DNA of 64,000 nucleotides from Candidatus Heimdallarchaeota archaeon (GTDB lineage: Archaea > Asgardarchaeota > Heimdallarchaeia > Hodarchaeales > Hodarchaeaceae), in NCBI GenBank assembly GCA_011364965.1, contig RDOB01000004.1, positions 197,003-261,002 on the forward strand, written 5' to 3'. The notes beneath the pieces were generated by a model that did not search any database, was not told the origin of the DNA, and saw only the letters and a list, made by a program, of their open reading frames with translations. Each line of letters begins with the position of its first letter. Within the stretch, counting starts at the first letter, position 1. Position numbers and translations under genes: made by a program. Shown piece after piece: positions 46,968 through 62,885 of this stretch.

Positions 46968-47447
46968 TTATATAGGTCCAAAAAGAATCCAATAATGTAG
47001 AGCTAAACCTAGGAATATACTCATTATCACTAAGCGAATAGCAGATCCAATGATTCTTTCGCGGATTGTACGCTCTTTACTAGTCTCTACAAAGAATACA
47101 AGCCAAATAGAAGAAAAAATTCCGAGGAGGGAAAAGATTAAGGCAAAAGGATAATAAAGATTATCATCAACAAAAGGATTTTTCCATTCGGGGAATTCAA
47201 CAGTAGTAGTGGTATTAGTTTCGTCAGTATCAGACTCAGTGGTCGTTGTAGTATTATCAGGAACAGTAGTATCATTTTGAGAAATTAAAAAAGTAATTTT
47301 AAGGAATTCATTCTCATAGGATTCGTTATTGATATTTGTGTCCTCGATTAGTTGTGTAGAACTAGCCAAGGGATTTGTTAATAGGTTAAGTAGGATAGTT
47401 ATTGTTGCGAAACTGATAAGCACATGTCGGAAGCTCTTTGTAGACAT
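46968..47447 (-). CDS. Hypothetical membrane protein with signal peptide and Thr-rich linker
   Basis: N-terminal hydrophobic segment, NTTTTT sequons/linker, two C-terminal TMs. Confidence 0.7.
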   Translation of the reverse strand: MSTKSFRHVLISFATITILLNLLTNPLASSTQLIEDTNINNESYENEFLKITFLISQNDTTVPDNTTTTTESDTDETNTTTTVEFPEWKNPFVDDNLYYPFALIFSLLGIFSSIWLVFFVETSKERTIRERIIGSAIRLVIMSIFLGLALHYWILFGPI

Positions 47448-47777
47448 TATTAATCATTACTCCAGCAATCAGGCATGAAATGATGCCCATTTCGTCGAAT
47501 CTTGCTTAAAGAGGGAAAGTCTAAAAAAGTTCCTTTGTATGTCCAAAAAACACAGATGAAATGCAAAATTGAAGCACCCTGAAATCTACCACAAAAAGAA
47601 TATAGAGGAAGAAGAAAAACAGAATTACAGCAAAAAGACCAGTATATATATGAGAAAATTAGAAAGGAGGGAGTTTAAGAGGGAGATCTGTATGAAAATA
47701 ATTAGAAACTGAAGGGAAAGGGAAATAAGACCCTATTCTGCTTAGAAATCATATATGATCGCAAAGTAGTAAGAAAT

Positions 47778-47863
47778 ATGCGCCGACCGGGAATATCAAT
47801 AAAATACGCCATAGGTATTTTATTTTTGAACCCGGCTTACCAGCTTGGAAGGCTGGAGTCCTA
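47778..47863. repeat. 86-bp perfect inverted repeat, left copy (within tRNA-Gly)
   Basis: Reverse complement is identical to 50295-50380. Confidence 0.95.
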
Positions 47864-47884
47864 ACCAGGCTAGACTATCGGCGC
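47779..47884 (-). tRNA. tRNA-Gly(TCC) with a 32-nt intron at position 59/60 (47793-47824)
   Basis: Acceptor GCGCCGA/UCGGCGC, anticodon arm CCAGC-CUUCCAA-GCUGG, T arm CCGGG-UUCAAA|U-CCCGG after removing a relaxed-BHB intron with a 9-bp hairpin. Confidence 0.92.
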
Positions 47885-48012
47885 GACACGTCATCTATTC
47901 GGATATTCATTGCTTAATCGAGTGTTTTCCCGTCTTTAAGCAGCTTTTGTGTCTTCTCTTCGTTTTTTGTTTTGTGTACGCTCCCTGTTCTCCCTTTCTC
48001 TTAGTCCCTTTT

Positions 48013-48753
48013 TTATGTTTTTGGTCTAAAAATCGTGTACTCTTCTCGCCATGTTTCATCTTTGGTGTAGAAGTCTTTATCGTACTCGACGAAACTCTTT
48101 TTGCTTGTCCATACTTCCAGATTTGTCGCGTAGTTGTCTTTGGGGGCGGGTAGAATGACCTGTTTGATGTAACTTGTCTGCAATGTTAATAGGAGGGGGT
48201 GAGGATTGGGGATTGCCCCCACTTGCCCTATATCAATATGTTGGATCTTCGGACACTCCAATACGGGGGTTAAATCCACTTTTTCTAGAGGATTTTGGCC
48301 CATATAAAGTGACTTCAAATTTTGACAGTGCCTCAGTGGCGTTAAATCGACTGAGGTCAGGCGGTTACTCCTAATATCTATCCGGGTTATGTTTGGCCAG
48401 CCTTTGGCCCAGGTCAGATCGACTTCTGGTAACAGATTGACACGAAGTGTCAGTGTATGTAGTGGCGTGCACTTTCTCAAGACGCGAGTCTCAAATGCCT
48501 GTAATTCGTTTCCACTTAAGGAGAATACCTCTATTGCGTTACAGTTCTCTAAGCTTTCACTGTGTTGAATCTCTTTAAGGCCCGCGAAGATAATTTCTAT
48601 ACTACTCAGATCTGGGTATGCTTCCAACGGCTTGAAATCTAGTGTTGGATATCGAGTATATGGTGGGTCGCCCCCGTTATAGCTTACAACGTACGATCCA
48701 GAAAAGCCCTTTTTGATGAACGCTTCAGGTAATTTAATTTGTAACCACTCCAC
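48013..48753 (-). CDS. Leucine-rich repeat protein (copy A, intact)
   Basis: LxLxxNxL repeats: FSLSGNELQ, LTLRVNLLPEVDL, IDIRSNRLTSVDLTPL, LYMGQNPLEKVDL. Confidence 0.88.
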   Translation of the reverse strand: MEWLQIKLPEAFIKKGFSGSYVVSYNGGDPPYTRYPTLDFKPLEAYPDLSSIEIIFAGLKEIQHSESLENCNAIEVFSLSGNELQAFETRVLRKCTPLHTLTLRVNLLPEVDLTWAKGWPNITRIDIRSNRLTSVDLTPLRHCQNLKSLYMGQNPLEKVDLTPVLECPKIQHIDIGQVGAIPNPHPLLLTLQTSYIKQVILPAPKDNYATNLEVWTSKKSFVEYDKDFYTKDETWREEYTIFRPKT

Positions 48754-48834
48754 GATTTAATACTTTATGCATATATTAACGTTTTTCTGGTTTATAAACC
48801 TTTGTTTTTACGGAATTATTACGAAATAGAGCTT

Positions 48835-49617
48835 TTAGTCGGGTTTCCAGCAATAATTGACCGTATCATATGATTGACCAGGCAGGATCAGGCGGGCGAT
48901 ATTGCAATCCCAGTCAAACACCCAATCATAGACTAAACGGAAGTATTTGTTCGTACAGTAGGCTTCAGAATGGCCGAGATATCCAAATTCCCCAAAGAAA
49001 AGCAGTTCTGCCGTCATTATACTAATAACTGCTACATCAATCCAGCCTACAATGACATTTACTCCTGGAATCATGGAGGCAACCACATTCACGAAGATAA
49101 TCAATATCATCAACGCGATGAATGATAATACTGCGAGGATTTGTTCTAGGATCGACCCTGCAGGACGGTTGAAATCGATATAAGCGGGAAGACTGGTGCC
49201 AACACTCACTGCTGAGTTAAAATTAAAGTTATACCGTAAGGATGAATTTACGGGATCTTGATGTGATACCCCTACTAGAATATTAATCACTCCATTCTGG
49301 CGAGGACGGCTATAATACTCACCATTGTAAAAAACATCATCCCCATTGTCAAAGAAATATCCAGGAGATTGATTCGAATCGAACTCCAGCGTTCGGGCAA
49401 TCACTTCAGTCTCGCTACTCGCATAGAGGGTTGAGATCTGACTGGAGCCCCAAGAGTATGCATTTACCTCGGAGAGAACAGGAGCTGAACTATGACTTTG
49501 AGGTGCCGCGAAACTCCACACCTCAACCTGTAGCTGAGTAGCACTGATACCAGGTACTGGAATATATAAGGGAGGGGAACTGGCAGCATAATCCCTCCAG
49601 AAGAACCAGGTTTTCTC
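48835..49617 (-). pseudogene. 5'-truncated gene for a membrane/surface protein
   Basis: Frame is open from 49617 (EKTWFFWRDY...) without a plausible start; two C-terminal hydrophobic segments. Confidence 0.55.
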
Positions 49618-49621
49618 TCAG

Positions 49622-49885
49622 GTTATCAAGCTCCCCTTGTCACAGGTGAAAGTCCTTCTCTATTATGGTTTCTTGGGGAAGCTGCCCCTCATCACGATGG
49701 ATATCGAGAAAACCCTCCTCCAGCTAAATGTTTCCTATGATTTCAAACGGACGGGGATGTTATTGAAGGAACTCGCCACTGAAGAGCTTATTGAGATGGA
49801 AGAACGTGTCTCCAAGAATAATCGCACCTATCGCCTATGGAAGTTCCCACCTGTGGCGTCATTTACCCCTAGTAATGAATTATAG
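49622..49885 (+). pseudogene. Winged-helix-like gene fragment
   Basis: DIEKTL...KRTGMLLKELATEELIEMEERVSKNNRTYRLWK; abuts the divergent truncated ORF with no promoter space. Confidence 0.45.
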
Positions 49886-50264
49886 GGAACTTCTTACCAA
49901 AAGTACAATCATTAAATTTAATTGCAGACAAAATCCCTCTAATTTGGAGAACGAATTCAGGATTTCTCTTAGCTCTTGTATCCATTGAGGCAATCTGTAT
50001 ATGCTGAATTTAAATGGCCAGAAGCTTACTATACCAGTAATTGATAATGATGTAAACAAAATAGAATTTTATCTATCTATCCACCCTAATTTGGACATAT
50101 AGAAATGCAAGAATGAAAAACAACAGCTAATGTAATCCGCCAAGGAGGAAATACTTACTTCTCTTATGCGTTTTAAAGAATTAATTTATGCTATTGAAGA
50201 TAAATTTGTGGTTTTCTTATACTCAAAAATAGCACAGAATGGCATTAAACAAAATAACATTGGC

Positions 50265-50286
50265 TATATCAAACATCCTTGATATA
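50265..50286. other. 8-6-8 palindrome next to the tRNA fragment
   Basis: TATATCAA-ACATCC-TTGATATA. Confidence 0.55.
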
Positions 50287-50294
50287 ATCGGAGC

Positions 50295-50380
50295 TAGGAC
50301 TCCAGCCTTCCAAGCTGGTAAGCCGGGTTCAAAAATAAAATACCTATGGCGTATTTTATTGATATTCCCGGTCGGCGCAT
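50295..50380 (+). repeat. 3' fragment of tRNA-Gly(TCC) including its intron; right copy of the 86-bp inverted repeat (att-like)
   Basis: Identical to the tRNA from the 3' side of the D loop to just past the discriminator; lacks the 5' acceptor strand and most of the D arm. Confidence 0.93.
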
Positions 50381-50386
50381 TTTCCA

Positions 50387-50679
50387 TTATTTTTCTTCAG
50401 ACAGGTCAAATCCTTTACCGTAAAAATCAGCGACTTCAAAGTAGATCTTTTTCATTGCTATTATTTGCGAGCTTAATCTCAATGATATCGAATATTCTTG
50501 ATTCATGCTCGGCCAGGCTTTGCTGGATAAATTTCCAGTCTAATCCCTTTTGGCCAAACTGCTTTGTGAGGTACACATATTCACTATCAATCCCTTGATA
50601 ATGATCCTCGGCTTCTAAAATTATTATCGCGTGACCAAACGATTCTCTTGTATCCCCAACAATCTTTACGATTCTTCAT
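50387..50679 (-). pseudogene. Frameshifted small conserved hypothetical gene
   Basis: IVGDTRESFGHAIII...GIDSEYVYLTKQFGQKGLDWKFIQQSL...FDIIEI, then frameshift to KKIYFEVADFYGK*; the ATG at 50679 is out of frame with the body. Confidence 0.55.
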
Positions 50680-50693
50680 CCCTTCTTACAGAT

Positions 50694-51938
50694 CTAATGC
50701 TCTATCTCATAACGTAATATAGCACAAATGCCTCCAAAACTCTGAATTTGTCTACCTTCTTCTGTTGTGTCACTGATAATTTCAGTTCTTGCCCCAGTCT
50801 CTTCAGCTAAATATCCCAGATTCAAAATTAAATCTTTCTTTTCAATGTCCCATTTAAGAGTATTACACTTCGGACAGGAGGTTTTTTGAATTTCAGATAT
50901 ATAATTACTTTCTTCTTCAAATTTAATCGTTGCTTCTTGGAGGAAAGAGCAATTTAAACATGTACTTTTCATCCGTAATAGATTCAAACCCTTTGATACA
51001 AGTAATGTATCGACCGCTCCCATTTTAAGATTCTCTCGAACCTCTTTTTCACCATAATTTGCTTTATTTGCCATCATAGCATCAAGAAATTGACGAACCA
51101 ATTTCTTCTCTTCCATAATTGAAACTCCTTCTAATAAATCTTGAGATTCTGAGACTAATTCACGGATCCCACTTTGATCTCCTCCATATCCTAAATCCTT
51201 TATCCCAATCAGTTTGTCTTTTAGGCGCTTATCAAAGTATTCAATCACTTGTTCTTTTATTTGACCAGGTCCTCCAACGATAATTCCTTTTAAATTCTTA
51301 TCAGGGGCTTCAATAAAGAAATTTTTTAATTCATCAGCAACTCTTTTCATAAATCGAGCTACAGCTTCCTCTCTTAATCTAGCAAATCGAACGCTACTCT
51401 GGCCACCTTTTCTGTGTTTTTTAGCTGCTCCACTTCTTGTAGATTTAATGATTTCAATATTTCCTCCCTTTAATGTAGCAATAGTAGCTTTAGCTGAATC
51501 AATAGCAAGCAATGCATATAATTCCTTTTCAACCATCCGATCTAAAAGGTGTTCAACATGAAAACGGTTATCACAAACGTAAAGTTTTCGTGAAACTGGT
51601 TCTGGAGGTTCAAAAACATAGGATTCGATTTTAAAATCCTTATGACCTGAATCAGATGTGGCACCAGCGAAAAAAACAATTCCAGTTGAAGGAGATTTAT
51701 TACCATATAGTTTCAACTTGCCAATGACTGTGCGGAGTGCGCTAACAACATTTTTCTGAGTGAATTTACTACGAATGTTAGTTGCTGTACCTATCTCTTC
51801 GGTCAGCTCTTGAACAAAAGCAGCGATGGCACGATCAGGAGGAACATAGAGAGAGATAAGACATGTACTCCCATCTGGAGATTCCTTTTTTTGGAGATCT
51901 GTCAATTCTTTCTCATATTTATATTGTTTAAAGCTCAT
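50694..51938 (-). CDS. prf1: Peptide chain release factor aRF1
   Basis: LISLYVPP, TATNIRS (NIKS variant), YVCDNRF, KGGQS, YGEKEV, GGICAILRY. Confidence 0.96.
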   Translation of the reverse strand: MSFKQYKYEKELTDLQKKESPDGSTCLISLYVPPDRAIAAFVQELTEEIGTATNIRSKFTQKNVVSALRTVIGKLKLYGNKSPSTGIVFFAGATSDSGHKDFKIESYVFEPPEPVSRKLYVCDNRFHVEHLLDRMVEKELYALLAIDSAKATIATLKGGNIEIIKSTRSGAAKKHRKGGQSSVRFARLREEAVARFMKRVADELKNFFIEAPDKNLKGIIVGGPGQIKEQVIEYFDKRLKDKLIGIKDLGYGGDQSGIRELVSESQDLLEGVSIMEEKKLVRQFLDAMMANKANYGEKEVRENLKMGAVDTLLVSKGLNLLRMKSTCLNCSFLQEATIKFEEESNYISEIQKTSCPKCNTLKWDIEKKDLILNLGYLAEETGARTEIISDTTEEGRQIQSFGGICAILRYEIEH

Positions 51939-51999
51939 TTTGCATTCCTAATTCCATATATCGTCTGGATTGCCCAGTATTTCTTCTTTAACAGCGATG

Positions 52000-52989
52000 T
52001 TAAAAAGACCCGGGATTTAACAAAGCGCTTTCAATCGCTTTATAGAAGGTGGAAAAGCTATTAATGAATTCATTAAATGTTATTTGCTTCCAATCAGTGA
52101 GAGGAGAATATTCAACGAAGTCTAATCGCAATATTTTCGCTGAACATCGATTACAAATCATTGAGAGTATTTTTAATGTTTCTCTTATTTCTTTGGATTG
52201 GGTTTCAACACTTTTTATTTTCTGTAATCTAAAAGATTCAAGATCAGTGAAGTAGCCAAGAATTTCTCCCAGTTGAACGTTTGAATCCGAGTTCAACTCT
52301 TTATATTCCTCTAATTGTTGTTCAAGATTCATAGAATGTCCGATTATTAGGTCTCTATGCCAAAAATTTGCATAACCCATGAATGGATTCCGAGAGATCT
52401 GATAAAAATCTAGATCTATCGTTACATAAATATATTTCTCCTCAAGCCATTTAATAAACCCCTGATTCTGAATCAATCTAGATAGCTGATATTCTGAAAA
52501 TGCAAAATTTGAGAGATTATTTAATTCATTTGAAGAATCTCCCCAAAGTCCTATTACGACTGTTCTACTGGCTAGATTTTTAGTAATCCATGCATTGTGT
52601 ATATTATGGTTGTCTCGAAAGTCAAGATGGGCATCTAGAGTGATAATCCCAAAATTTTCGTCAAAATGCTTTAAATAATCTCCAGCAATGAATTTAGCAG
52701 GAGCGTGAGAGGGTGAAACATTGAGTAATTTTGGGGTTTCATTCCAAATATTAAAAGGGAGGTCATTATAGGATCGTGAGTTTAATACTTGATTGTGGGG
52801 ATGCTTCTTAAGGTAATTATGTAACTTTAGATAAAAATCGGGGGCAATGATGCCCTCAAACTCAAGGTTAGGATATTTATTTTTCAGGAATCTTATTTTT
52901 TCGAAAGCCCAGTATTCTTCAGCCCAGAAGTTAATAACTCCATATGTATTGGGAGGAAAAGCAGGAAAAACCCTATTTTTAGATGGCAT
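52000..52989 (-). CDS. Divergent arginase/ureohydrolase-fold protein
   Basis: LDAHLDFRD, YVTIDLDF, DFVEYSPLTD; start placed at ATG 52989 just after the pyrH stop. Confidence 0.6.
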   Translation of the reverse strand: MPSKNRVFPAFPPNTYGVINFWAEEYWAFEKIRFLKNKYPNLEFEGIIAPDFYLKLHNYLKKHPHNQVLNSRSYNDLPFNIWNETPKLLNVSPSHAPAKFIAGDYLKHFDENFGIITLDAHLDFRDNHNIHNAWITKNLASRTVVIGLWGDSSNELNNLSNFAFSEYQLSRLIQNQGFIKWLEEKYIYVTIDLDFYQISRNPFMGYANFWHRDLIIGHSMNLEQQLEEYKELNSDSNVQLGEILGYFTDLESFRLQKIKSVETQSKEIRETLKILSMICNRCSAKILRLDFVEYSPLTDWKQITFNEFINSFSTFYKAIESALLNPGSF

Positions 52990-52996
52990 TGTAGGG

Positions 52997-53677
52997 TCAT
53001 CGATTTTGAATGATTGTACCCACATTCTTCCCCTGAATCGCATCCTTAATTTTATCTACATTATTTGAACAAATAATGATTTTTATATTAGATCGTTCGC
53101 AAATCTTGGCAGCTATTAATGTAAATGGAGCATTTGATCCTGCTTCTAATGATAATGGTGAAACAACCTCATAAAATTCATAATAGGATAGCTGGTCAAA
53201 TTTTTTTGCTTTAGGATGCTTTTTGGGATCTTTCTCATATATTCCATCAACATTTGTTATATTAATCAACATAGGACTCCCAAAAAGATCAGCAAGTATT
53301 GCTGCATCCTCATCAGTCTTGATAGCAGGAAGAAAGCCACCTGATAAGCCGATATCGTGTTGTTGAAGCTGTTCTTGTAATTCTTTTTCAGTAGAAGGTA
53401 ATAGAGGGGAGCAATGACCCTTAAAGTAGAAAGAAAGCAACCGTGCGTTTACCCAAGTGGCTGCAATCCCCATGTAATCCCGCTCGCCCTCAGTTAAGCC
53501 ATCTGGTAATGCTTGAATATACTGACGAGCTACGATCCCTCCACCGCAAACAATCATAAACCTAAATTTGGGAAGTAACGCAATAATAGCATCTGCAAAT
53601 GATTGTAAGAAATTCTTATCAATTTCACCTGGGTTGATAATACTTCCACCTAAAGAGATAGTTATTGTTGGTTTCAT
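52997..53677 (-). CDS. pyrH: UMP kinase
   Basis: ISLGGS, VCGGGIVARQYI, DYMGIAAT, GGFLP, TNVDGIYEKDP. Confidence 0.92.
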   Translation of the reverse strand: MKPTITISLGGSIINPGEIDKNFLQSFADAIIALLPKFRFMIVCGGGIVARQYIQALPDGLTEGERDYMGIAATWVNARLLSFYFKGHCSPLLPSTEKELQEQLQQHDIGLSGGFLPAIKTDEDAAILADLFGSPMLINITNVDGIYEKDPKKHPKAKKFDQLSYYEFYEVVSPLSLEAGSNAPFTLIAAKICERSNIKIIICSNNVDKIKDAIQGKNVGTIIQNR

Positions 53678-60347: not shown

Positions 60348-60420
60348 TGCGCCGACCGGGATTTGAACCCAGGTCACCTGTGTGGCAGACAGGAGTCTTA
60401 CCAGACTGGACTATCGGCGC
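60348..60420 (-). tRNA. tRNA-Gly(GCC), intronless
   Basis: GCGCCGAUAGUCCAGUCUGGUAAGACUCCUGUCUGCCACACAGGUGACCUGGGUUCAAAUCCCGGUCGGCGCA. Confidence 0.93.
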
Positions 60421-60565
60421 TCGATGAAAAGAAGACCTTTCTGCCATTTATTCGCCTCTTTCATGCTTATTCTGTCGTTTCTTCGACTTCAATCGGTCTT
60501 TATATCTTCTCATTGGTTTTTGTTCTGTGTGCGCTCCCTATTCTCGCTTTCTCTTGGTACCTTTT

Positions 60566-61317
60566 TTATGTTTTTGGTCTATAGATGGTGTATTCTTCCC
60601 GCTATGTTTCATCTTTTACGTAGAAGTCCTCATTGTATTCTACTGTGCTCTTTTTATCTGTCCACACTTCCAGATCTGCCGCGTATTCTTTTTTTGGTGC
60701 TGGTAGGACGGCCTGCTTGATGTAACTTGTCTCCAATGTTGCTATGAGCGGGTGATTCCTTGGGATTGTTCCCTCTCTTTTCGTATCTATATACTGTATA
60801 TTCGGACACTCCAATAATGGCGTTTAATCCACTTTTTCTATTGGATTTCCTCCTATACTTAACAATTCCAATTTTCTGCAGTTTCTAAGTGGATTTAAAT
60901 CTACTGATGTTATGTAGTTATTCTTAATATATACCTGGGTTAATTTTGACCAATATTTCACCCATTCGAGATCGATTTCTGTCAATATATTAACATCTAG
61001 TACCAACGTGTGCAGAGGTTTACAATTTTTCAGTACATGGGTGTTGAATGCTTTTAATTCGTTTACACTTAAGGAGAATACCCGTATCGCTTCACATTTC
61101 TCTAAGCTTTCATTGTTTTGAATCTCTTAACGCCCGCATATATAATTTCTATTGCGCTTAGTTCTGGGTAAGTTTCCAACGGCTTTATTTCTAGTATTGG
61201 ATATTGTGTATATGGCGAGTCGCCCCCGTTATAGATTACAATTCGCGGCCAGTGTGTGAAGTGCCTCAAGCACTCTACATCTGTTTCGAGTAATAGTCTG
61301 ATCTTTAACCGATCCAT
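60566..61317 (-). pseudogene. Leucine-rich repeat gene copy B (paralog of 48013-48753), inactivated
   Basis: Colinear with copy A (YNGGDSPYTQYP, TSYIKQ, PAPK, KDET, RPKT*) but with a 1-nt deletion near 61128, TTA>TAA at 60824-60826 and TGG>TAG at 60602-60604. Confidence 0.9.
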
Positions 61318-61566
61318 CAAGACGGAAATCTGTCCCATTTTAGGATGAGATGCCAAAGATACTTACAAATTCACCCTCAATGATATAAAACAACCACAAT
61401 AAATTGTTGCCAATAAGTAAAAATTCCAAATATTTTTCTAAAAGCATATTGGAATCTAGACTCATGCTGATGACTGTTATATTAATATTAAAGCTCTCAA
61501 TCTAATCAAATCTATAATACAATTGCGAGTAAATAGGTTTTAAAGCTCTTATTGAAATAAAAGGAA

Positions 61567-62616
61567 GTGGTGGAATTCTTGAATGAAGAACAACAGAAAC
61601 ACGATTTTTTAACACGAACTACAAAATATGGCCGGAAGGGTTACTTAGTCGCAATCTTTCTCTTAACAGGGCTCAGTAATCTTATTTTCTTCATTCATCA
61701 TCAAGTAGTTGGTTTAGCTCCTGGTTGGACATGGGAGCAAGAGATTTTTCAACAAATTTTCATTCTCATTGTCAACTCTTTGGTGGTTTTATTCACTGAT
61801 TTATCATCTGACATGAGTTTCAATCTATTTAAGAAATTAGAAGAAGAGCAAGTTATTCCACGAGAAAATGTGGAACAGATTAATGGTTTTTTATGGGATA
61901 AAAAAGTCTATGCTATTACTATAATTATTTTTCTCATCTCTGTTCTATTTGGATTAATGAATATTATTATGGGTTTTGAACCTCTAGAATATGTGTTCAG
62001 TTTAGAGTTTCTTGCTGCTTTGATTGGTCAACCTGTTTTCGCCTTAATCTTTTCCGAATTAATCTGGATCATTTTCTCTACCACTGTTACAATACTTCTA
62101 CTTCCTTTCAGAAACTGGAAAGTGTCTCTTAATGTTTTTAGTGGAGACAAAGCTGGGGGAATACATTCTATCTCGACCTATTTATTACGAATATCCTTAA
62201 TGATAACATTATTATGTACTACTTATTTATACTGGGTATTAGGACCAGCCACTTCAATATATCCCCTTGAATGGCGGATTGTAGCACTATTCGGGGTGCT
62301 CTCTCTTCCATTGTTGTATTTTATAGTGCCAACGATAGGATTAAATCGAATTATGAAGAAAGAGAAGAATACTGTTCTACGTGAGCTCTCAGTAAGGCTG
62401 AATCACGCTTATTCGACTCTCACAACTGATTCCTCTAAGATAGATTCAACGATACTTGAACAGGTACAATTGGTAGAGCTCTTACATACTAAAGCTACCC
62501 AGATGAGGGAATGGCCATTCAGTCTTTCAGGATTGAGGAATTTACTTACCTCTTTTATTCTCCCTATAGGTTTATTTTTCCTTACTAACCTTCAAGACAT
62601 TTTATCCTTGTTTTAG
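61567..62616 (+). CDS. Hypothetical multi-pass membrane protein
   Basis: About 7 hydrophobic segments; DKAGG and EWPF motifs. Confidence 0.75.
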   Translation: MVEFLNEEQQKHDFLTRTTKYGRKGYLVAIFLLTGLSNLIFFIHHQVVGLAPGWTWEQEIFQQIFILIVNSLVVLFTDLSSDMSFNLFKKLEEEQVIPRENVEQINGFLWDKKVYAITIIIFLISVLFGLMNIIMGFEPLEYVFSLEFLAALIGQPVFALIFSELIWIIFSTTVTILLLPFRNWKVSLNVFSGDKAGGIHSISTYLLRISLMITLLCTTYLYWVLGPATSIYPLEWRIVALFGVLSLPLLYFIVPTIGLNRIMKKEKNTVLRELSVRLNHAYSTLTTDSSKIDSTILEQVQLVELLHTKATQMREWPFSLSGLRNLLTSFILPIGLFFLTNLQDILSLF

Positions 62617-62885
62617 TTACAATGACGTTAATTCCTCCTTCTTGGAGCTAGCTTATTCAAACGCGTGAATAAAGTGAAAATATTGCTGATAGTGCATTTA
62701 GAGAACTCCTGAAGGTCGAAATAGTAAAAGCAAGAGAGATCTCTTTAGTACAAAATCCAACAGAGCCCTTTTCTAAGACTTGTTTAAATTCAAACCAGCA
62801 TATGTGATATTGTTTTAGTAAGAATACTTATCATTAAAGTTCCACAATTATACAATTAAATTTTAAGCTTCTCGGATGTTAAAGA

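Follow-up and report, generated by a model that had tools for sequence, protein, structure and literature searches.

Chromosomal inversions anchored in tRNA genes have so far been documented in Thermococcales, where they occur between inverted tRNA genes and are catalysed by the pTN3 integrase (Cossu et al. 2017, PMC5495485). The plasmid test substrate in that study consisted of a full and a partial tRNA copy, inverted and placed ~0.9 kb apart, and the homology-type reaction of the SSV-family integrase was shown down to 104 bp (PMC5495485). Variation at a single tRNA gene is also known from a natural population of Caldiarchaeum subterraneum, whose tRNA-Thr(GGU) locus exists as several alleles (Sugahara et al. 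2012, PMC3293823). Here we describe a locus with features of both systems in a stretch of 64,000 nt from the Asgard archaeon Candidatus Heimdallarchaeota archaeon (GCA_011364965.1, contig RDOB01000004.1, positions 197,003 to 261,002; hereafter the window). In this locus the gene for tRNA-Gly(TCC) and an inverted, 5'-truncated copy of it bracket a 2.4-kb segment of foreign DNA. We propose, with a probability of roughly 0.55, that a foreign insertion of ~2.6 kb has recently entered the species at tRNA-Gly(TCC), that it is still polymorphic, and that its 86-bp arms allow it to invert, interconverting the two orientations occasionally and neutrally.

The pTN3 inversions are the closest system that we found: they too are archaeal and have their endpoints in inverted tRNA sequences, which there include tRNA-Gly pairs, and the test substrate has almost the layout seen here. 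In Thermococcales, however, two complete genes are involved, the inversions are large and the integrase is present, whereas here one arm is beheaded, the segment measures 2.4 kb, the arms are 86 bp long and no such integrase was found. With the Caldiarchaeum locus our locus shares several alleles at one tRNA gene, a tRNA fragment (there ~1.8 kb off) with an insert in between, and allelic differences in the intron. The Caldiarchaeum fragment, by contrast, is a direct 5' fragment and its insert is repeated and comes with a recombinase, whereas here a 3' fragment lies inverted and the insert is single-copy and devoid of a recombinase. If our proposal is right, an essential tRNA gene has been dismantled and rebuilt by rearrangement with its function kept, in a natural Asgard population that harbours the empty site and apparently both orientations, and tRNA-anchored inversions extend to Asgard archaea. 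The locus would also offer a testable case for models in which mobile DNA and recombination at tRNA genes give rise to tRNA fragments, non-canonical introns and split tRNA genes.

An earlier note on this DNA had described an 86-bp perfect inverted duplication of the tRNA 3' end that includes the 32-nt intron, and this was borne out by both a repeat search and BLAST. The repeat search of the window returned arms at 47775-47863 and 50295-50383 (89 nt, 99% identity), within which the exact reverse-complement core spans 86 nt at 100% identity (R1 and R2 in Table 1); BLAST of an independent contig agrees. Such a perfect 86-mer in 64 kb is not attributable to chance, and in a self-comparison of the 2.97-Mb assembly (28-nt seed) this pair was the sole within-contig inverted repeat at an identity of at least 95%. 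The arms run from nt 22 of the tRNA, in the D-loop, to one base beyond the discriminator, so that R2 is without the first 21 nt. The note had placed R1 inside the tRNA gene; the arm does overlap the gene, and at 47778 it reaches one base further than the tRNA 3' end at 47779. In sequencing run X4 the 86-nt repeat unitig has a depth of 103.7 against 47-57 for its surroundings, and the cells therefore hold two copies of the repeat; in run X13 the unitig has a depth of 12.9 and the doubling is less clear. Neither a direct copy of the repeat nor a tRNA 5' fragment was found in 47400-50750 or in the genome, and genome-wide there is no second copy of the repeat site and no similar module. A third look-alike of the repeat, at C12:268314-268368 outside the window, turned out to be a different tRNA with a related 59/60 intron.

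The alleles found within the species carry the argument further. Other assemblies were retrieved by exact protein-sequence look-up, and among them L073, a 96-kb contig of the metagenome-assembled genome GCA_016839295.1 (an Asgard archaeon according to PMC13700489), holds the empty site. Here the native upstream region is followed by 24 nt, by tRNA-Gly(TCC) on the plus strand, by a region that we denote Y and by eRF1. L073 is 99.4% identical to the window over eRF1 and Y, and the flanks of the empty-site and cassette alleles are almost identical over ~20 kb. The tRNA gene of L073 has one difference, at nt 21, and bears a related but distinct 30-nt T-loop intron. Despite the 99.4% flank identity, the T-loop introns of L073 and the window disagree at about ten positions, and their lengths are 2 nt apart.

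The cassette allele as in the window is found on the 525-kb contig C12, which runs through both arms. The opposite orientation is found on L072, an 8.4-kb contig from IMG metagenome 3300009509 (Mai Po mangrove sediment). This contig consists of the reverse complement (rc) of window positions 50295-53000 followed by window positions 47864-49540, with 6 mismatches in 4383 nt (99.8% identity), and reads eRF1 - Y - repeat - tRNA 5' part - up - LRR - p228, where LRR stands for the leucine-rich repeat gene of the cassette and up and p228 are described below. For this sample, IDBA had been run on 150-nt paired reads with k ranging over 65-145 (PMC6461988); since the maximum k of 145 exceeds the 86-nt repeat, the assembler could span the repeat with real reads. 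We consider it likely that both orientations truly exist in nature. The 27-nt hairpin of the tRNA intron gave no match in metagenome or viral contig sets; L072 carries this hairpin, so the JGI record evidently lies outside the scanned set.

Sequencing runs, all of them represented by k=31 contigs, bear on the presence or absence of the insertion. In X13 the left flank, at a depth of 9.6, splits into a window-like branch (6.6) and a 136-nt contig (5.8), with roughly half the depth of the flank, in which native upstream DNA runs into the 5' end of the tRNA in plus orientation; Logan contigs of three further runs end at 47613, the same branch point as in X13. Cassette polymorphism therefore extends to single samples, and the insertion is a very recent one that is still polymorphic. 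The perfect identity of the two intron copies had been ascribed in the earlier note to very recent origin or to ongoing exchange: the recent date of the insertion suffices to explain the identity of the arms, and ongoing exchange is not needed to account for it.

Comparison with related genomes, one of the checks that the note had proposed, was run on 17 relatives and shows which of the two tRNA copies has moved. Ten same-genus genomes with wide flanks share the order glmS - o46387 - o46968(-) - tRNA-Gly(TCC)(+) - 20-33 nt - eRF1(-), continuing to tRNA-Gly(GCC)(-). In seven further loci the order o46968 - tRNA - eRF1 is kept in six, the remaining one (L014) covering the tRNA and eRF1 only. From this synteny it follows that the truncated copy R2 holds the ancestral position and orientation and that, of the two copies, it is the full gene that has been flipped. 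The native DNA ahead of the ancestral tRNA site includes a block, 47422-47537, that is conserved in the genus; BLASTN against 17 relatives puts it ~132 nt from their tRNA 5' end. Y is shared by the empty-site and cassette alleles of this species and is absent from the other species of the genus. It was also considered as an integrase remnant; its only match was a weak one, to a PHROG without known function (E 0.002), and it is native, since the empty-site allele contains it.

How would such an allele arise and invert? The insertion would have replaced the 24 nt upstream of the tRNA, leaving identical arms on either side of the tRNA promoter region, the gene's first 21 nt and all of the cargo. 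A crossover between the arms would then invert 2.4 kb and join the tRNA 5' part to the other arm. With the 5' part inside the segment and the arms identical, each state would hold one complete tRNA and one beheaded copy; the geometry thus supports the earlier suggestion that inversion rebuilds a complete tRNA at either end. Compared with the empty site, the flipped state would be the simpler one, with a single ~2.6-kb insertion beside an untouched tRNA-Y-eRF1, and the window state would be one inversion away from it. In formal terms of attachment sites, the flipped state corresponds to attB (5' part-R-Y) together with an inverted attP-like site (xr-R-rc(Z')), and the window state to attL plus attR. 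We conclude that the cassette has probably flipped via its 86-bp arms. The two orientations would be interconverted through arm-by-arm recombination, and we infer that flipping is an occasional, essentially neutral event and not a regulated switch. The idea of an invertible segment acting as a neutral switch is therefore upheld in part: one independent assembly (L072) and the synteny speak for inversion, whereas there is no sign of ongoing or regulated switching, and a programmed switch is unproven.

Several observations weigh against this proposal. The flipped link is seen in only one contig built with k >86, and L072 stops at 49540, before the distal repeat and the left junction. An inversion between perfect 86-nt arms leaves the set of 31-mers unchanged, so the k=31 contigs of the runs are silent on orientation across the repeat, and the orientation of the window contig is attested by its own assembly. 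The proposal does not explain how the inverted arm arose, and putting the pieces together in each of the plausible ancestral orders recovers no gene, neither p228 nor p82. Finally, there is no recombinase within 20 kb of the locus, and in the 87%-complete assembly PF00589 matches only XerA (contig C9) and one Xer-like protein (contig C1), with no serine recombinase.

The recombinase search extended to the segment itself. The open reading frames (ORFs) and fragments of 47645-50693 were all compared with Pfam and PHROGs, with NCBIfam added for the LRR protein and p82; these scans found no recombinase in the segment, as the earlier note had stated, or near it. A genome-wide search for recombinases and for further copies of the tRNA fragment, also proposed there, yielded the two tyrosine recombinases and neither a serine recombinase nor a further copy. 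XerA scores 276 bits against NF040815, above the cut-off. In a check for pTN3-type enzymes only XerA and the Xer-like protein were matched in the 87%-complete assembly, from which very divergent integrases could escape. The likeliest agent of inversion is general homologous recombination across the 86 bp, ahead of a trans-acting tyrosine recombinase. The non-XerA tyrosine recombinase (C1:230-1873, locus L047; 329 aa) scores 118 bits against the XerA model, below the cut-off, lies at a contig end and adjoins a small GTPase gene; it is possible that it is a mobile-element integrase.

Of the alternatives, the one that survives best, though we regard it as unlikely, is that only one orientation is real and the locus a fixed scar, the other orientation being an assembler mis-join across the 86-nt repeat, either in the window contig or in L072. 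Segments between inverted repeats are a classic assembly ambiguity, and L079, a k=31 Logan contig with the flipped link, shows how such chimeras arise, its run being of low depth and the alternative junctions having gone unsampled; for the same reason we rejected L079 as evidence for the flipped orientation. The other Logan contigs, from four runs and from the protein look-ups, break at the repeat, and L072 ends in a coverage gap at 49540. Against a mis-join, an 8.4-kb contig at k >=65 implies a depth at which both alternative junctions are rarely unsampled, and the assembly parameters and reads behind L072 (k 65-145, 150 nt) argue in the same direction, as does the window contig with its length of 525 kb and its passage across both arms.

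Classical integration would give direct repeats and leave an integrase. The attL/attR repeats of tRNA-targeting integrative elements are reportedly described by Williams (in 2002) and, for archaeal gene capture, by She and colleagues. Our locus resembles such scars in that the repeated block ends at the tRNA 3' end (plus one base), in its foreign cargo, and in the empty site of L073 and 17 species. It departs from them in having inverted instead of direct repeats, in the placing of its cargo on the 5' side and flush against the first tRNA base, and in the lack of an integrase or a remnant of one. The simple picture of an integration scar with an inverted att site misfits: there is no integrase remnant, and the cassette abuts the first base of the tRNA just as the foreign DNA does at tRNA-Gly(GCC).

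A single inversion with duplication is a less probable explanation still. Here the L072 allele would be an intermediate in which the LRR cassette lies upstream of a tRNA in native orientation, without a second arm, and a staggered break or template switch would have made the window allele together with the 86-nt duplicate. L072 does stop short of the expected distal arm, and no inverted tRNA fragment lies beside the paralogous LRR unit at tRNA-Gly(GCC). Inversions that are flanked by inverted duplications and made by staggered breaks are known in Drosophila, reportedly from work of Ranz and colleagues in 2007. However, if the staggered break fell at random, one would not expect the duplicate to stop just a single base beyond the tRNA 3' end, no allele without the second arm was seen, and the repeat unitig looks double, clearly in X4 and less so in X13.

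We think it improbable that the locus is a programmed site-specific inversion, in which a recombinase from elsewhere (the C1 Xer-like protein or a mobile-element integrase) would recognise a core site within the repeat and flip the cassette often and with a regulatory outcome. Bacterial invertons and shufflons (Hin, Gin, FimB/E, Rci) carry or adjoin a recombinase and switch a promoter or a coding end. The likeness to them is that inverted repeats bracket a short segment that apparently occurs in two orientations, one in each of two independent assemblies (the window and L072, in which the distal arm is unseen). Unlike in invertons, there is no recombinase inside or adjacent; the promoter, the tRNA 5' part and the cassette genes move together, and no ORF is completed either way. 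The apparent presence of both orientations, the formal correspondence of the two states to attB plus attP and attL plus attR, and a second, non-XerA tyrosine recombinase in the genome would all suit a programmed module, and so would the intron hairpin as its candidate core, which has the arm-spacer-arm layout resembling that of a tyrosine-recombinase core. Yet the same layout is needed by a bulge-helix-bulge (BHB) intron, and similar 59/60 introns occur in unrelated tRNAs. The genome holds no other copy of the site and no similar module, flipping alters no gene's promoter or coding end as judged from the gene layout, and arm-type repeats around the R2 inner flank or in an attP-like reconstruction are not above chance. 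Weakest of all, and very doubtful, is a cis attB/attP inversion module in which a tyrosine recombinase acting in trans would use the T-loop intron hairpin, the spliceable intron doubling as crossover site; if true, an essential tRNA would have its promoter and 5' part shifted from one 3' half to the other, which would make it a living intermediate towards split or permuted tRNA genes.

The gene around which the locus is built is itself unusual. The complete tRNA-Gly(TCC) gene at R1 is the only full copy found in the assembly, and neither ARAGORN nor Rfam called it in unspliced form because its intron sits in the T-loop. When the 32 nt at 59/60 are removed, the 74-nt product folds in ARAGORN into a perfect tRNA-Gly(TCC) cloverleaf. 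The intron forms a hairpin with 10-bp arms (AATAAAATAC/GTATTTTATT) and a 7-nt spacer, and beside it exon UCAA pairs with intron UUGA in a BHB-like arrangement with a 4-bp helix. It thus has the features of an archaeal BHB tRNA intron, at the non-canonical 59/60 site. This locus is a warning for annotation and assembly alike: the gene escapes standard tRNA finders, and assemblies made with short k are unable to settle which way the segment lies.

In the 17 relatives, tRNA-Gly(TCC) has a canonical 37/38 intron (19-30 nt) in ten species and is intronless in seven; within the genus the T-loop intron in this gene is particular to this species. This genome carries related 59/60 T-loop introns in several further tRNAs, and throughout the genus tRNA-Gly(CCC) has them too. 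Matches of ~80% in relatives that take in a T-loop intron proved to be tRNA-Gly(CCC) orthologues and not TCC genes. Two adjacent tRNA genes, each with a 59/60 intron, lie at C12:268050-268370, 7 kb past the window end. The second of them (acceptor GCTCCGA) has an extra intron in the anticodon region, and its T-loop intron is similar to that of tRNA-Gly(TCC).

Table 1. Features of the tRNA-Gly(TCC) locus and of the related unit at tRNA-Gly(GCC); positions are those of the window
Feature	Position	Strand	Description
Native upstream region	47422-47644		native region upstream of the ancestral tRNA site; matches empty-site allele L073 to ~47644
Z'	47645-47777 (~133 nt)		cassette-side DNA adjoining the 3' end of the full tRNA; missing from empty-site allele L073
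Repeat arm R1	47778-47863	-	tRNA nt 22-73 plus 1 base; includes intron 47793-47824
Complete tRNA-Gly(TCC)	47779-47884	-	exon 1 47884-47825; intron 47824-47793 (32 nt, 59/60); exon 2 47792-47779
'up' spacer	47885-48012 (128 nt)	-	between LRR stop and tRNA 5' end; paralogous to the spacer upstream of tRNA-Gly(GCC)
LRR protein gene	48013-48753	-	intact; 246 aa; PF13855 at 7e-16; GC 0.437
p228	48835-49521	-	orphan ORF; hydrophobic C-terminal stretches; frame open to 49617
p82	49592-49885	+	beheaded ORF; C-terminal 97 aa of a 200-290-aa family
AT-rich stretch	49886-50294 (409 nt)		non-coding; GC 0.31; abuts the inner side of R2
Repeat arm R2	50295-50380	+	5'-truncated tRNA copy, nt 22-73 plus 1; intron copy 50334-50365
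Y	50381-50693 (313 nt)	-	frameshifted ORF fragments lacking a start, located between tRNA site and eRF1 stop
Paralogous unit	60348-61356	-	tRNA-Gly(GCC) 60348-60420, spacer, LRR pseudogene (3 stops)

Between the arms the content is as the earlier note described it: the first 21 nt of the tRNA with its upstream region, an LRR gene and two truncated ORFs (Table 1). By its composition, this DNA, with its LRR gene, orphan ORF and gene fragment, is foreign, the three coding pieces having a GC content of 0.44-0.46 against 0.34-0.36 in the flanking genes. Among 21 genomes of the genus none has a close homologue of the LRR gene, the best match reaching 30% identity. The orphan ORF p228, which is probably N-terminally truncated, retrieved only itself among 5.8 billion proteins and matched neither Pfam nor PHROGs. 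p82 is 74% identical to residues 142-237 of the 237-aa protein P0004 (phmmer), and its missing N-terminal 140 aa were not found anywhere in the genome. The two ORFs stand back to back, and their junction at ~49591 is the same in all samples and is spanned by contigs L082-L085. No other copy of Z' was found in the genome, and nothing in viral contigs matched the patterns of Z' and of the R2 inner flank or the LRR and p82 proteins. A 119-aa ORF that runs across R2 found no relative and hence was unusable as an orientation marker. On a 2.8-kb contig of run X4, present at a depth of 19, a variant of the p82 fragment (49688-49792) with 93% identity is followed by divergent sequence, which suggests a fuller copy of the p82 gene or element in the same community.

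A second LRR unit lies at the neighbouring tRNA-Gly gene. Window positions 47825-48689, covering the tRNA 5' part, the spacer and the LRR gene, are 73.6% identical over 886 nt to 60362-61241, 12.5 kb apart, and the LRR pseudogene there has 63% amino acid identity to the intact copy. This paralogous unit forms part of a genome-specific insert of ~2.25 kb (in 60348-62885) directly upstream of tRNA-Gly(GCC), where relatives have 216 nt. At both tRNA-Gly genes (TCC and GCC) the foreign DNA extends to the first tRNA base. The presence of LRR units abutting two tRNA-Gly genes suggests targeting of the tRNA-Gly 5' part, or recombination within it. Exchanged D-loop bases in the two tRNA-Gly genes might have recorded past recombination; they proved uninformative, since the empty-site allele has the same bases. 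The insert at tRNA-Gly(GCC) also contains a 349-aa multi-pass membrane ORF (61567-62616) that matched no family.

Elsewhere in the assembly we noted perfect near-tandem direct repeats of 77-78 nt, spaced 10-11 nt apart, at C11:272852-273016, C12:180282-180446 and C13:251940-252103, and an array with a 57-nt period at C9:149171-149377.

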